In this document: positions 48,472 to 58,306 of the stretch, in pieces
Layout: every line of letters starts with the position of its first letter
How positions within the stretch are numbered: the first letter of the stretch is position 1
From: Escherichia phage LAMP
Length of the DNA stretch: 64,000 nucleotides
Sequence record: MG673519.1
Strand: one strand, 5' to 3'
The notes under the pieces: generated by a model
Told to the model about the DNA's origin: nothing
Database searches by the model: none
The model's input: only the letters and a program-made list of their open reading frames with translations
Made by a program: the position numbers and the translations under genes

Positions 48472-48937
48472 TCTTTCTCAGTTGAGAAACAGCATCTGCT
48501 GCTTCTTCTAAAGTTTTAAAAGAACCACCAAAGTATGTCTTACCTCTGAAGGTAACTGAACACCACCAAGGTTTCTCTCTTTTCCTGTTGAAATAAACTC
48601 CCTTCACTCCGTGAGTGTTATCAATCCTAATCTTTTGATTAGCTTGATTTTGAGACTTATCAGCCTCTCTCAAGTTGTCAGGAGAGTTGTTTACTGTATT
48701 CCTGTCTATGTGGTCTACAATTTCAGGGAGATATCCATTATGAAGGAAGAAAACTATTCTGTGATTAAGAAAAATATCACCTAAGATATTAGTTTGGTAA
48801 TACCCTCTCAAATTCAATGACCCACAAGGAGTCCCTTCTTCAACATCTGCCCTTCCACAAGAAACCCAAGATAATCCAGTAGGTGATTTCTCATCTATCT
48901 GAACTATCTCTTTTATGTTATCAGGAATTGATTTCAT
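48416..48937 (-). CDS. HNH endonuclease with C-terminal AP2-like DNA-binding domain
   Basis: 173 aa; HNH_3-like ...HRIVFFLHNGYLP...VDHIDRN...DNLR followed by an AP2-like GVKGVYFNRKREKPWWCSVTFRGKTYFGGSFKTLEEA. Confidence 0.7.
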   Translation of the reverse strand: MKSIPDNIKEIVQIDEKSPTGLSWVSCGRADVEEGTPCGSLNLRGYYQTNILGDIFLNHRIVFFLHNGYLPEIVDHIDRNTVNNSPDNLREADKSQNQANQKIRIDNTHGVKGVYFNRKREKPWWCSVTFRGKTYFGGSFKTLEEAADAVSQLRKNVHGDFASSGKETGSSET

Positions 48938-49343
48938 TCAAATACTTAACCCAATCACCACACTCAACAAGCTCTTCTTGTTCCTCATCAATTGAGTAAA
49001 TCCAAGCGATAACAGTTTCACCTGAGTCCATCTTAACTGGAATCTGAGTACGTTGATAGAAACTATCTTCAGGACTATGTTTATTGTAACCTTCCAGACG
49101 ATCGTATGGACCTTCCAGACCTGCTTTGTCAGTAGCAAACACTTCTACACGAACAGGCTTATTGTTATTGCTGTGTGCGAGAGAGATGCTTGGGAAGTAG
49201 GAACCACCATAACGGAACAGATCAAAGTTGTCTTCAGTCCAACCTTCACCAATTGACTTAGCACCAGCTCGGTCATTAACTAAATAGTTAGCTTGACCAC
49301 TTCTCAAACTACCATAAGTTGCTACGTAAATTACTTCTGACAT
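48921..49343 (-). CDS. Gamma-glutamyl cyclotransferase-like protein (AIG2/GGCT fold)
   Basis: 140 aa; N-terminal YVATYGSLRSG matches the (F/Y)xYGSL signature region of GGCT/AIG2-like enzymes. Confidence 0.6.
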   Translation of the reverse strand: MSEVIYVATYGSLRSGQANYLVNDRAGAKSIGEGWTEDNFDLFRYGGSYFPSISLAHSNNNKPVRVEVFATDKAGLEGPYDRLEGYNKHSPEDSFYQRTQIPVKMDSGETVIAWIYSIDEEQEELVECGDWVKYLNEINS

Positions 49344-49412
49344 TATTTATACCTTTGTTGGTTTGTTTGGTTTATCCGAACTAGCCTCCTCTTTCGAAGA
49401 GGCTAAAGCAGA

Positions 49413-49598
49413 TTACTCTGTAATAAAGATTTTGATTACACCGCAGATTGCCGCACTTTCAAATACTGCAACAGCTTCACTCCCTTGAAAGAAGGCCACC
49501 TTGCCATCAGAGAAGTTAAACATATCGGCATCTAGGTCCATTGCTCGCATTTCACCAGCTGCATTGGTATCTTTAAACAGAACTTTATACTTATTCAC
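49413..49598 (-). CDS. Hypothetical protein
   Basis: ORF track, 61 aa; ATGA-type overlap with the upstream gene. Confidence 0.4.
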   Translation of the reverse strand: MNKYKVLFKDTNAAGEMRAMDLDADMFNFSDGKVAFFQGSEAVAVFESAAICGVIKIFITE

Positions 49599-55325: not shown

Positions 55326-56132
55326 TTATGCTACCTGAAGGCGTTTAATCTGCTGGTCCGCTTCTTTAACGTTATTACCGTTAATGATTTCATGAAGCTT
55401 CTCAATCGGAAGGCGAGAGTGCAATGCCATCAGAGTGGACATGTCACACTGCTGAACAACCTTGTCAACCTGATCATAAACAAACTTACGGTTTTCACGA
55501 TCACTAATCCAGAAGTTAGACAGGGAACGATATTCAATACCATAGTCCTTGTAGCGGATTGCAGATGCTTTACCGTAGAGTTCTTTACGGCGAGTGTCTT
55601 TATCCATAATAACTGCTGGGAGGGATAGGAAGTAGTCACACAGCACACCCAGCATCATCTGAGTTTGCAGGGTGATATCCAAAGCACCAACTACGCCAAG
55701 ATGTACGTGACCACCGGCAGTACGAAGCCCCTTATTTTGAGAAGTCGGGGATGGGTTCTTCTGACCAGTGAAAGCGTTGAAATCAGGAGTACATCCAAAG
55801 ATGAACGCTGATTCATTGAAAGTCTTCATCTCTTCTTCAGTGAAGATGTGAGAGCTAACACCCGGAGCTGTTTCCATGTCCAGTTTGTTCAGGACATTAT
55901 TGGTGAGATCGATACCACGTTGCATGTTGTCATTAAACGCTTCAAAACCGCTCTGTGGGTCAATATCAAACTCAGCCAGTACGTTGTCCTCTTGAAGACG
56001 AACATCCTTAGCCAGAGCGATCTTATCGTCCTTAGAACAACCTAACAGACCAGCTACAGAGGTGATGATTCCTTTGCTGGTACGAACGAACATTTCCGGA
56101 TCCGATCCTATTAAGAATTTGCGCTTAGTCAT
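55326..56132 (-). CDS. Hypothetical protein (cluster member; possible second ligase-like enzyme)
   Basis: ORF track, 268 aa; N-terminal FLIGSDPEMFV; unassigned. Confidence 0.5.
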   Translation of the reverse strand: MTKRKFLIGSDPEMFVRTSKGIITSVAGLLGCSKDDKIALAKDVRLQEDNVLAEFDIDPQSGFEAFNDNMQRGIDLTNNVLNKLDMETAPGVSSHIFTEEEMKTFNESAFIFGCTPDFNAFTGQKNPSPTSQNKGLRTAGGHVHLGVVGALDITLQTQMMLGVLCDYFLSLPAVIMDKDTRRKELYGKASAIRYKDYGIEYRSLSNFWISDRENRKFVYDQVDKVVQQCDMSTLMALHSRLPIEKLHEIINGNNVKEADQQIKRLQVA

Positions 56133-57096
56133 TGTAATACTCCACTAGTTCAGAAAAGAGAGATGAGATTGTGTTACCGATTTCTTCAGGATTAAGACCA
56201 GAATCGATTCCAGTACGCTGAATTATTCGTGCTGTAAAGTTTTGTACTGTAATGTTTTCCAACTTATTGTCTATTGCTTCACGTTTGTGACCATAACAGT
56301 TGGACCAGAGTTTTAACCACTCTGACATTGTTTCATACTCATCCGGATCTTGATCTTTAGCACGAGCAAATCTTCGTAAGACATCTGTGTTGTGGTTACG
56401 AACATAACCATTCTCGTTGTCACCAACACCGAAGGGGTTTTGAACCCATACTTGCTTCGTGTATTCATCAGAGTCAACAACCAAAGGAAGGAATGCTGCT
56501 GCTGACATATTGTTGTCAATAACAACAGACGTGCTTTCACTACTCCCATTGGAAGCTCCTCGTTGAGACCACCTACCAAAGAAGTCACGACCCAACCCAG
56601 CTAACAATAGAGCGATGCCAATGCGTTTACGCTTCAGCCACTCTTCCCTGTCTTCAATTCCTTCTGCTAGGAAATCCATTCCACGATACTGCCCTTCCAA
56701 AATGCTACGGAAGAGCATAAGTCCTGTGAAGATTTGATCTGCTGGATGCTCACGGAGGTTGACAGCTACGCTATTCGCTGAAGTGATTGTGAATACATCG
56801 CGATAGCAAGACATGGAGTTCATAATATCTGCTGTTTCAACCAAGTTCTTTTCAATATAAGATGCATCATGACCGTGAAAAGAGTGAGTCCAGTAATTCA
56901 GCATCTCCAGTTGCAAGTTGATATCACGGTTGAAGCGTCTATAACGCCCCTCTTCCATGATAACTTCGCCATTAATATCGCTTACACATTGGCCTTGCAT
57001 GTAGTTGTGAATACCGAAGCACCCACGACCTAAGAACTTCTGTTCCCCTAAATCTTGTTGAAGATTCAGAGGTACGATCGTTGTGGAGATTGACAT
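56125..57096 (-). CDS. Hypothetical protein (cluster member)
   Basis: ORF track, 323 aa; 8-nt overlap with the downstream gene. Confidence 0.5.
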   Translation of the reverse strand: MSISTTIVPLNLQQDLGEQKFLGRGCFGIHNYMQGQCVSDINGEVIMEEGRYRRFNRDINLQLEMLNYWTHSFHGHDASYIEKNLVETADIMNSMSCYRDVFTITSANSVAVNLREHPADQIFTGLMLFRSILEGQYRGMDFLAEGIEDREEWLKRKRIGIALLLAGLGRDFFGRWSQRGASNGSSESTSVVIDNNMSAAAFLPLVVDSDEYTKQVWVQNPFGVGDNENGYVRNHNTDVLRRFARAKDQDPDEYETMSEWLKLWSNCYGHKREAIDNKLENITVQNFTARIIQRTGIDSGLNPEEIGNTISSLFSELVEYYND

Positions 57097-57106
57097 AACT
57101 AACCTT

Positions 57107-58306
57107 TTATTTTCCTAAAAATAATCCGCTCATAATACCATCCCACTCAGAGGATGGAATCACTGAATACTCCGAACTTTGGTCCAGAGTTCCACTACTA
57201 AATCGCTGAACAATGTTATAGATGTTGAACAGGTCTTTAGCCTCAGTACGGATACCGTAGACTAATTTATCAAATGTTCTTTCATCTTTAGATACCCGAC
57301 GAGCAAAATTAACCAGAAGGTTGTCACATTTAAGCGTTTCTGACCCACTCTCTACCAAATCAGGGTGCATCACAGGCAAGAACATCGAGTTGTTAACTCG
57401 CAATTCTGCTGTTTCATCATTCTCATAATGAATCCACTTAAAATCTTCATCACGAAAGTGACCGCATCCATCTCTGTATGACTGTTGACGCCAAGGCACT
57501 TGAAATGCTTCAGCGTATTTATCAGCCATGCCGACTGTAAACAGCGACGCTGGGAAGATACAAGCATCCCAATCATTACCGACCAGAGTTGCTTTCGTTT
57601 CACCCAAGAGGTTAGTATAAGTGCTAACCATTCGGGAATAAATATAAGCCTGAAGGATTGTCCAACCTTCAATCAACCATTTATGAAGGAAGGTTTCAAC
57701 TTGACTCTCTTCGTCTTCGCAATAGAAGGTTCGGTCTAGCATTAAATAGAACAGACAACGATCAGCAGGGATGTTCTCAGTTGCTACACCCATAAAACCT
57801 TTCTCGTGCCAGCGTAAACAGGAGGGACGATCTTTGTCCACAAATGCTTCCATAGCTTCCAGTACAGCACGAGGTGAGGTTTGGTATTCAGGGTTTTTAC
57901 TATTCCAACGATCAATGTTGTTCTTAGGAGGTGTGTCTTCATCTTCATACGAACACCAACTTAAAGCTTCAGATACGTGCTTTTCATCACACCAATGCCT
58001 AAAACCTAACATCTTCATGTGAGTTCCGGAGTTCCAGATATGCTTGATTTTACACATATCCATCTCTCGGCTTAACAGGAACTCTTCCCCATCAGCACTA
58101 CGAACGTTAGCTTCTTCATTCCACACTCGAACGTGCATATTCCACCCATAAGTTGCCTCATACGTGTTAGGGTCGAAGTAGTCGTCGTATTCGTCATCAT
58201 CTTCATCAACGCCACCGTTATAGTTTCGGAGCTGAAGGAATCCATAGCAAGGAGGATAGACCGTTAAAACTCTACCTTCAATATCTTCTAATGTTACTGG
58301 AAACAT
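57107..58306 (-). CDS. Hypothetical protein (cluster member)
   Basis: ORF track, 399 aa; acidic N-terminal stretch; unassigned. Confidence 0.5.
   Translation of the reverse strand: MFPVTLEDIEGRVLTVYPPCYGFLQLRNYNGGVDEDDDEYDDYFDPNTYEATYGWNMHVRVWNEEANVRSADGEEFLLSREMDMCKIKHIWNSGTHMKMLGFRHWCDEKHVSEALSWCSYEDEDTPPKNNIDRWNSKNPEYQTSPRAVLEAMEAFVDKDRPSCLRWHEKGFMGVATENIPADRCLFYLMLDRTFYCEDEESQVETFLHKWLIEGWTILQAYIYSRMVSTYTNLLGETKATLVGNDWDACIFPASLFTVGMADKYAEAFQVPWRQQSYRDGCGHFRDEDFKWIHYENDETAELRVNNSMFLPVMHPDLVESGSETLKCDNLLVNFARRVSKDERTFDKLVYGIRTEAKDLFNIYNIVQRFSSGTLDQSSEYSVIPSSEWDGIMSGLFLGK

Follow-up and report, generated by a model that had tools for sequence, protein, structure and literature searches.

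A widespread phiEco32-type amidoligase cassette in the kuravirus LAMP, with a predicted role in forming and trimming gamma-glutamyl or peptide-type conjugates

The window analysed here is a stretch of 64,000 nucleotides from Escherichia phage LAMP (sequence record MG673519.1), a member of the genus Kuravirus, and its subject is a gene cluster that occupies positions 48921–58306 on the minus strand. Twelve open reading frames (ORFs) follow one another end to end in this interval, eight of them large and four of 61–82 amino acids (aa). Starts and stops of neighbouring ORFs overlap by 4 nucleotides (49595–49598), 20 nucleotides (51251–51270), 4 nucleotides (54699–54702) and 8 nucleotides (56125–56132). 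A first-pass annotation made from the sequence had described nine tightly packed minus-strand genes; the packing, the strand and the overlaps were described correctly, but the number was too low. It had also placed the cluster, rightly, beside a primase-helicase gene and an HNH-AP2 gene. In nucleotide sequence the region matches Escherichia phage AidaStucki_Bas93 at 99% identity and NJ01, O18-011 and many other kuraviruses at ∼94%. The cluster genes correspond one to one, and in the same order, to phi32_77 (which encodes a gamma-glutamyl(amine) cyclotransferase-like protein, GGCT) through phi32_88 (a 399-aa protein) of the phiEco32 record, and we therefore use the names gp77–gp88 throughout (Table 1).

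The position beside the primase-helicase and the colinearity with phiEco32 genes 77–88, together with the presence of an ATP-grasp ligase, a class II glutamine amidotransferase (GATase) and a GGCT in one co-directional block, identify the cluster as an already known system, the phiEco32-type amidoligase cassette. This cassette has been described computationally, and its function is only predicted. The earlier suggestion of an undescribed module was thus mistaken: the cluster equals phiEco32 gp77–gp88, and a Pfam family (PF14395) is named after the phiEco32 ligase. Every cluster ORF falls in a phage protein family (PHROGs); those of the 205-, 323- and 399-aa proteins and of the small ORFs are families of unknown function. 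Profile searches of each ORF, which the first-pass annotation had proposed as a check, confirmed the ATP-grasp, Ntn and GGCT families and added a fifth enzyme, the PF14395 ligase gp86. Five proteins of 205–399 aa had been listed as unknowns, gp86 among them; only three large proteins without a family (205, 323 and 399 aa) are left. In each of the five enzymes the residues for catalysis and metal binding are invariant across 6–9 lineages. Their scores all stay under the curated equivalog cut-offs (NCBIfam).

Table 1. Genes and other features of the cassette and its border in Escherichia phage LAMP (positions within the window)
Feature	Position	Strand	Basis
gp77, GGCT/GGACT-like gamma-glutamyl(amine) cyclotransferase, 140 aa	48921–49343	minus	Pfam, phrog_2520
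gp78, 61-aa ORF	49413–49598	minus	phrog_8591
gp79 homologue, 82 aa, RNA polymerase regulator	49595–49843	minus	100% identity to phi32_79
gp80, RimK-like ATP-grasp ligase, 397 aa	49850–51043	minus	Pfam (weak), orthologue profile
gp81, 74-aa ORF	51046–51270	minus	phrog_13464
gp82, 77-aa conserved small protein, DUF7195	51251–51484	minus	Pfam
gp83, class II (Ntn, Cys-1) amidotransferase-like, 676 aa, start ATT	51489–53519	minus	Bas93 alignment, Pfam
Ultra-conserved leader of the amidotransferase gene	53508–53575	minus	cross-lineage sequence comparison
gp84, Amidoligase_2 (GS/GCS-fold carboxylate-amine ligase), 367 aa	53599–54702	minus	PF12224, phrog_7469
gp85, cassette-specific protein, 205 aa	54699–55316	minus	gene position, predicted structure
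gp86, phiEco32-type COOH-NH2 ligase type 2, 268 aa	55326–56132	minus	PF14395, phrog_3815
gp87, fast-evolving phage-only protein, 323 aa	56125–57096	minus	relatives, model
gp88, orphan protein of Gordonclarkvirinae, 399 aa	57107–58306	minus	phrog_13063, tblastn
HNH-AP2 gene adjoining the GGCT gene	48416–48937	minus	without counterpart in Bas93 or phiEco32

Two of the three ATP-dependent ligases share the GS/GCS fold. The earlier call of a GS/GCS-like amidoligase holds for gp84, which matches Amidoligase_2 (PF12224, E = 6e-8, 33.3 bits against a cut-off of 22) and phrog_7469; in the alignment, residues E33, E35, E58, H95, H97, E186 and R188 are invariant in 8–9 lineages. The second is gp86, which Pfam assigns to 'Phage phiEco32-like COOH.NH2 ligase-type 2' (PF14395, E = 2e-8, 34.1 bits against a cut-off of 25) and which also belongs to phrog_3815. 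Its residues D11, E13, E54, H142, H144, E200 and R202 are invariant in all nine lineages aligned. Profile searches against the PDB returned no solved relative of either protein.

The third ligase, gp80, begins with an ATP-grasp region (residues 1 to ∼270); an acidic linker connects this to a further C-terminal domain (∼316–397), the extra domain that the first-pass annotation had recognized. Its last 82 aa belong to a family of their own, phrog_20552, and this extension differs among lineages, in which total lengths range from 250 to 774 aa. Pfam matches to RimK and Dala_Dala_lig_C are weak. A profile built from nine gp80 orthologues matches the RimK structures 5zct/4iwx over positions 44–261 (E = 5.6e-9), which makes these the nearest among solved structures. 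Residues K85, E157, R159, H161, K173, D229, E241 and N243 are invariant in eight lineages. We considered and rejected gp80 as a RimK equivalog: it scores 26 bits with NF007764 against a cut-off of 331 and 32 bits with TIGR00768 against 143 (NCBIfam), and the similarity is one of fold only. The product name 'ribosomal protein S6 glutaminyl transferase' that gp80 carries in GenBank is unjustified at scores so far under the curated cut-offs.

Alignment with Bas93 and its annotated coding sequence shows that the gp83 gene comprises 676 codons and begins ATT-TGT-GGC (I/M-C-G-I-V-L-A-G-G). The Ntn nucleophile Cys directly follows the initiator, and a Cys follows the start codon in all lineages compared, other lineages having ATG-TGT or TTG-TGT at this position. 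No ATG, GTG or TTG occurs between the upstream in-frame TAG and codon 114. Because the gene starts at ATT, a standard ORF listing shortens it to 563 aa (51489–53180), and for the same reason gp83 is shortened in many GenBank records, where the 5′ part of the gene is unannotated. The protein has a glutaminase domain (residue 1 to ∼235), a low-complexity linker rich in N, S, Y and Q, a middle domain conserved across lineages and three zinc-ribbon-like Cys4 motifs (C440/443/461/467, C487/490/512/515 and C641/644 with C666/671). Two of these motifs sit in a repeated module (internal Zn-module repeat, E = 2e-6). Together with matches to GATase_6/7 in Pfam, they bear out the earlier description of a class II, Ntn-type amidotransferase with zinc ribbons. 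R29, G30, R86, N97, H110-N111-G112 and D129 are invariant across lineages. An exhaustive profile search with the C-terminal 441 aa returned 10 representative proteins, all with this region behind the same glutaminase domain, which makes the acceptor-side domain unique to this phage family. A weak match to EgtC was found (E = 1.8e-4). GlmS was rejected as an identification, since only residues 26–195 match (TIGR01135, 38.7 bits against a cut-off of 418) and Pfam finds no SIS domain. The GenBank name 'L-glutamine-D-fructose-6-phosphate aminotransferase' is likewise unsupported, the SIS domain being absent. The scores behind the two propagated product names, that of gp80 and that of gp83, are 26–45 bits against curated cut-offs of 143–418.

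The fifth enzyme, gp77, matches Pfam GGACT (PF06094, GGACT/AIG2-type, E = 3e-16) and phrog_2520 (E = 5e-44), in agreement with its earlier assignment as GGCT-like. Its YG(S/T)L motif (Y10, G11, L13) and its L83-E84-G85 motif are invariant in six lineages.

The cassette extends far beyond the kuraviruses. A tblastn search with the PF14395 ligase found it in 306 phage records, of which 121 are from Pseudomonas, 93 from Escherichia, 22 from Vibrio and 11 from Aeromonas phages; Proteus, Salmonella and marine hosts are also represented, and the records include a Leptolyngbya cyanophage and a 349-kb Vibrio jumbo phage. One gene order, [∼290 aa][∼300 aa][COOH-NH2 ligase][∼200 aa, gp85-like][Amidoligase_2][GATase-II][∼73 aa, gp82-like][ATP-grasp]...[GGCT], is kept in Privateer, SJSY21, BUCT695, GAP52 (Grimontviridae) and Rembedalsseter (Vicosavirus), with a single ∼290-aa gene before the ligase in SJSY21. 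The primase-helicase gene, where the sequence compared extends to it, lies close to the cassette in these lineages. In TC6 (Zobellviridae) and the cyanophage Lbo-JY46 the enzymes are the same and their order is rearranged, and TacPo2 has at least the COOH-NH2 ligase, the gp85-like and the gp82-like genes. Pfam scans of the longer orthologues from other lineages revealed no extra domains. Since the same set and order recur in lineages whose proteins are only 25–50% identical, the arrangement is beyond chance. It is an ancient block, passed on by vertical descent, that occupies the early/middle (replication-side) region in podophages of the phiEco32, 7-11, LUZ24 and PA11 types.

Expression of cassette proteins has been observed in a close relative. 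Mass spectrometry of a polyethylene glycol-precipitated SU10 lysate detected the ATP-grasp protein, the amidotransferase, the GGCT-like protein and a 23.3-kDa protein, and the detected cassette orthologues are listed there as early gene products (PMC4281155). From its size and the gene order we take the 23.3-kDa protein to be the gp85 orthologue. In phiEco32, gp79 has been described as a middle gene product (PMC8948821). An exact copy of the phiEco32 middle/late promoter motif, TAATGTATA, was sought directly upstream of the LAMP cluster and was not present there; exact minus-strand copies of TAATGTATA lie at 34621 and 39730, downstream of the cluster.

From this gene content, synteny, the intact active sites and the expression in a close relative we infer a cytoplasmic, multi-step, ATP-using pathway that would assemble and trim a gamma-glutamyl or peptide-type conjugate, a reading to which we give an even chance of being right. 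In such a pathway gp84 and gp86 would activate carboxylates as acyl-phosphates and join them to amines, creating gamma-glutamyl or isopeptide-type bonds, and gp80 would add one or more further amino acids, glutamate being the most plausible. Two roles can be envisaged for gp83: it may supply one of the ligases with ammonia from glutamine, so that a carboxylate is amidated, or it may hydrolyse a gamma-glutamyl amide in the manner of EgtC. Finally, gp77 would remove a gamma-glutamyl group as 5-oxoproline and free the amine. The presence of three carboxylate-amine ligases, a Cys-Ntn enzyme and a GGCT matches a logic in which gamma-glutamyl groups are added and removed, and it also fits a glutamine-dependent amidation by GS-fold enzymes. 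The chemistry named in the first-pass annotation, ATP-dependent formation of amide bonds and trimming of gamma-glutamyl-type conjugates, therefore appears to have been well judged. None of the eight large proteins was flagged as belonging to a secreted or membrane family (Pfam, NCBIfam), and their N-termini suggest a cytoplasmic location.

The amidotransferase gene is preceded by an unusually conserved leader. The 62–68 nucleotides before the Cys codon of gp83 are at least 95% identical in 96 Gordonclarkvirinae records from three genera, and they are 92% identical in Aeromonas phage BUCT695 even though its amidotransferase protein is only ∼35% identical. The leader contains, in this order, a Shine-Dalgarno-like AAAGG, a 9-codon mini-ORF, the palindrome AAGGGT-TT-ACCCTT, AGGTGG and AAA ATT TGT. 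The mini-ORF (ATG AAA GGG TTT ACC CTT CAG GTG GAT TAG, encoding MKGFTLQVD and a stop) is in frame with gp83, and the AGGTGG sits eight nucleotides 5′ of the ATT. No Rfam family matched the leader or any other part of 48000–60000, and its predicted fold is modestly better than that of shuffled sequence (z = -2.2). These features suggest translational control of gp83, which might operate by direct initiation at AUU, by termination and reinitiation after the mini-ORF, or by readthrough of the TAG to give a 12-residue propeptide that Ntn autoprocessing would remove.

The cassette further contains proteins that do not resemble enzymes. The gp85 gene always lies between the two GCS-type ligase genes. 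Its product is predicted to fold into two small beta-barrels of the SH3/Tudor/KOW type, and for this reason we consider gp85 probably an adaptor, not an enzyme. An alignment of gp87 with its relatives (18 in total) has 53 invariant columns, many of them with polar residues. A model of moderate confidence (pLDDT 73.5, pTM 0.78) gave no fold match in the PDB; a Foldseek search of viral models retrieved uncharacterised proteins of GAP52, Aeromonas phage LAh_8 and CW02. The two matches in GAP52 are 290 and 314 aa long, and from these lengths they appear to be the products of the two genes just upstream of the GAP52 ligase. In Grimontviridae the two genes upstream of the ligase are paralogues (hhalign probability 96%), one of which is weakly related to gp87 (76%). 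gp87 belongs to a family of positional counterparts upstream of the ligase in other lineages. tblastn found gp88 only in Escherichia and Shigella phages, restricted to the Gordonclarkvirinae (phrog_13063), and searches of Pfam, NCBIfam and the PDB yielded no match; nor was a relation to gp87 detectable. It lies at the upstream end of the block, and its membership of the pathway is uncertain. Between sister genera gp88 is 41–45% and gp87 ∼55% identical, compared with ∼80% for the ligase; both evolve much faster than the enzymes. In the proposed pathway gp85, gp82, gp87 and perhaps gp88 would serve as adaptors or specificity factors.

The gp82 gene, a member of Pfam DUF7195 (E = 4.7e-17), is always directly 3′ of the amidotransferase gene and has orthologues in Grimontviridae, Vicosavirus and TacPo2. 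The alignment shows conserved V.TR..P.T..D.LR and P-x-P...I motifs and a C-terminus that is variable and non-acidic. gp81 and gp78 have no Pfam match; gp81 is lineage-specific, and gp78, which has no counterpart in the other phage families searched, is lineage-restricted. We considered gp82 and gp81 as a possible tag or carrier protein and rejected both, gp82 for its unconserved C-terminus and gp81 for its lineage-specific occurrence. No small protein of the cluster has the conserved C-terminal Glu/Gln or the acidic tail of a pupylation- or LysW-like system. The 82-aa product of ORF 49595–49843 is 100% identical to phiEco32 gp79, which inhibits sigma70-RNA polymerase and stimulates gp36-dependent transcription (PMC8948821); the first-pass annotation had missed this identity. 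Phages 7-11 and GAP52 lack gp79 and retain the remainder of the cassette (PMC8948821). We therefore do not count gp79 in the ligase chemistry, from which it is probably separate although its gene lies inside the interval.

The RimK relationship and the non-enzymatic proteins also bear on a different possibility, namely that the cassette tags a host or phage protein, for example ribosomal protein S6, RNA polymerase or a replication protein, with glutamate or short peptide tails. The RimK-like ATP-grasp enzyme and the GS/GCS-fold ligases, whose fold is that of the Pup ligase PafA, would attach such a tag, and the GATase-like and GGCT-like proteins would mature or recycle it. The closest solved relative of gp80, RimK, glutamylates a protein C-terminus, but the score of gp80 is far from that of a RimK equivalog. 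GGACT-type enzymes act on gamma-glutamyl-epsilon-lysine. SH3/Tudor/KOW-like barrels such as those predicted for gp85 often bind proteins or peptides, and fast evolution, as seen in gp87 and gp88, is expected of factors that contact host proteins. No tag- or carrier-like small protein was found among the ORFs of the cluster, which argues against tagging. In Kuravirus the RNA polymerase-binding gp79 is embedded in the block; its position is probably incidental, because 7-11 and GAP52 have the cassette and lack gp79. We regard protein tagging as unlikely.

The surroundings of the cassette vary. The HNH-AP2 gene next to gp77 is a mobile insertion, a homing endonuclease gene. In Bas86 (12170–13478) the annotation joins two pieces of the COOH-NH2 ligase coding sequence across an HNH gene, and UFV-P2 carries an HNH gene between those for the amidoligase and the GATase. 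Counting the present window, insertion of a homing endonuclease gene within the cassette or next to it has happened repeatedly. In GAP52 (687–3477) and Lbo-JY46 (2754–6963) genes for Ter (TerD/TerZ-like) stress proteins and for NAD salvage (NAMPT/PncB, PrsA) adjoin the cassette, which may be coincidence or may hint at a link to nucleotide or cofactor metabolism.

A metabolic role in its own right has to be weighed as well. The cassette could be an auxiliary module that rewires the host's glutamate, glutamine, glutathione or polyamine pools in the manner of a gamma-glutamyl cycle, provides replication with nitrogen or redox capacity and makes no dedicated product. By analogy, its enzyme classes resemble those of glutathione metabolism, where a GCS-type ligase and an ATP-grasp synthetase work alongside a GGCT and an Ntn-type gamma-glutamyl hydrolase. 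Neighbouring genes in LAMP encode thioredoxin, ThyX and dCTP deaminase, those in relatives encode NAD-salvage enzymes and ribonucleotide reductase, and Duhaime et al. refer to the genes as serving the recycling of host material (PMC5498523). Hosts, however, already encode such housekeeping activities, and none of the phage enzymes reaches the equivalog cut-off of a housekeeping enzyme. Moreover, the combination of five enzymes with three to four cassette-specific non-enzymatic proteins, in fixed order and in phages of very different hosts, suggests a dedicated product. We think a purely metabolic module distinctly unlikely.

The first-pass annotation had named a DNA base among the plausible targets. 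Attachment of an amino acid or peptide to phage DNA bases would explain why the Gordonclarkvirinae show striking resistance to restriction-modification (RM), a finding of the BASEL study that comes without a known modification pathway. Loss of sites does not account for the resistance, since the sites of RM systems used in the BASEL screen are retained in the genome (34 for EcoRV, 10 for EcoRI, 7 for EcoKI and 94 for EcoP1I). The cassette is located in the replication module, and viral metagenomes contain amidoligase and amidotransferase genes together with those for thymidine hypermodification (PMC8989533). Against a DNA target, ThyX (Pfam Thy1, E = 9e-44) and dCTP deaminase constitute the ordinary route to dTTP. 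ThyX is the only thymidylate synthase; neither a ThyA-like dUMP hydroxymethylase nor a TET/JBP oxygenase was found, and none is annotated in the 99% identical Bas93 either. Pfam, PHROG and NCBIfam searches of the cluster gave no match to a 5-hmU DNA kinase or to an aGPT-Pplase. In Rembedalsseter, which has the full syntenic cassette, a nanopore comparison of native with amplified DNA brought no modification motifs to light (bioRxiv 10.1101/2024.10.22.619576). The model of gp87 has no glycosylase-like match.

The short-word composition of LAMP points in the same direction. Over the whole window (1–64000) short palindromes are strongly avoided: palindromic hexamers have a median observed/expected ratio of 0.51 compared with 0.86 for other hexamers, CCWGG occurs 4 times where 74.5 are expected, 11 GC-rich hexamer palindromes are absent, and NcoI, SacI and KpnI sites are present in 0–1 copies. 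The hexamers CAGCAG (93 copies, 21 expected) and CAGCTG (31 copies, 10.7 expected) occur in excess. According to earlier comparative work, avoidance of palindromes characterizes phages with DNA open to attack by restriction enzymes, not hypermodified genomes. Attachment to DNA bases is therefore, in our estimation, very improbable. The BASEL authors considered that dCTP deaminase and a nucleotidyltransferase might mean dU-containing DNA; beside this suggestion, ThyX and dCTP deaminase also fit an ordinary supply of dTTP. The 415-aa 'nucleotidyltransferase' of Bas93 has no Pfam match at E ≤ 0.01, and the Bas93 loci concerned are 1638–3428 and 40718–41374.

A broader version of this idea is that a gamma-glutamyl or peptide group on a macromolecule, which might be a host protein of defence or replication or else phage DNA modified at low density, constitutes an anti-restriction or anti-defence mechanism of the Gordonclarkvirinae. 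If true, such an adduct could be the missing basis of their broad RM resistance. The evidence gathered weakens this reading, with the qualification that the nanopore result comes from a distant relative, Rembedalsseter, and not from a Kuravirus, and we consider it quite improbable.

Previous authors arrived at another target. The prediction of the cassette is credited to Iyer, Abhiman, Burroughs and Aravind (Mol Biosyst 2009), and three papers refer to this work for the proposal that the phiEco32 amidoligase and GATase genes modify the cell wall and so prevent superinfection (PMC5498523, PMC10580990, PMC11318856). According to Duhaime et al. (2017), who cite Hardies et al. (2013), the genes form a "peptidoglycan modification cassette" that consists of a gamma-glutamyl amidoligase, a second amidoligase, an ATP-grasp protein, a GGCT and a glutamine amidotransferase and is conserved in RIO-1, phiEco32, 7-11, PA11, tf, MR299-2, LUZ24, PaP3 and CW02 (PMC5498523). 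The genome papers of UFV-P2 and tf list the same genes with no functional comment. Literature searches returned genome descriptions only, with no biochemical or genetic study of the cassette; in keeping with the statement of the first-pass annotation, no characterised phage example turned up in the literature searched. Phages of the present kind are outside the scope of a transposon-mutagenesis preprint and of the Durham paper on DNA modification in phages.

Several points weigh against the conjugate pathway that we favour, and against a peptidoglycan target in particular. The peptidoglycan idea rests solely on analogy of enzyme class, and no cassette protein looks like a Mur ligase, transpeptidase or lipid II-binding protein. 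Since all the proteins look cytoplasmic, a role in the cell wall would have to be exerted on precursors. With no solved relatives of gp84 and gp86, their substrates cannot be read from the sequence, and the literature searched gives no product, substrate or phenotype for any cassette gene in any phage. The unrelated function of gp79 inside the block may mean that the cluster genes do not form a single pathway. Lastly, gp87 and gp88, which have no recognisable fold, could carry key chemistry and so change the picture. Taking the evidence together, we put a small molecule or a murein-precursor peptide, the latter being the published prediction, in first place as acceptor of the conjugate and a protein in second; a purely metabolic role follows in third place, and DNA is last. 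Of the targets listed in the first-pass annotation, the DNA base is thus disfavoured, and a small molecule, peptide or protein is retained.

The cassette is among the most widespread enzyme blocks in lytic podophages that are still without a known function, and many of the phages that carry it are candidates for therapy. Five intact enzymes and at least three phage-only proteins, kept in a fixed order that predates the split of the families, imply a conserved and probably important step of infection. Kuraviruses that infect E. coli K-12 exist (Bas86–94), and their RM resistance provides a phenotype that is ready for testing.

Similar combinations of enzyme classes occur in characterised pathways. 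In ergothioneine synthesis a GCS-type ligase (EgtA) is followed by a class II GATase-like hydrolase (EgtC); in butirosin synthesis gamma-glutamylation by an ATP-grasp enzyme (BtrJ) is followed by GGCT-type deprotection (BtrG); and GshA, GshB and GGCT are enzymes of the gamma-glutamyl cycle. GCS-fold, ATP-grasp, GATase-like hydrolase and GGCT functions are combined alike in these systems and, by class, in the cassette, whereas no orthology was found at the sequence level. Compared with the natural-product pathways, the cassette has no sulfoxide synthase, ACP or aminoglycoside gene, and it has extra phage-only proteins. The phage thymidine hypermodification clusters, reportedly described by Lee et al. 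in 2018 and 2021 and said to comprise 5-HMUDK, aGPT-Pplase and PLP/rSAM enzymes, resemble the cassette in their location in the replication region; 5-HMUDK and aGPT-Pplase were not found in the cassette. Among the individual enzymes, gp80 and its closest solved relative by profile, RimK, have the ATP-grasp fold and the Mg/ATP-binding residues in common; gp80 differs in its acidic linker and C-terminal domain and has no evident S6-like substrate. An alignment with GlmS shows that gp83 shares the N-terminal Cys, Arg, Asn-Gly and Asp of the glutaminase site with class II GATases (GlmS, PurF, AsnB) and EgtC, whereas the SIS, PRTase or PP-loop synthase domain of GlmS, PurF and AsnB is missing. With phiEco32 gp77–gp88 the cluster agrees gene for gene and shows no substantive difference; LAMP has the HNH-AP2 insertion beside the GGCT gene.

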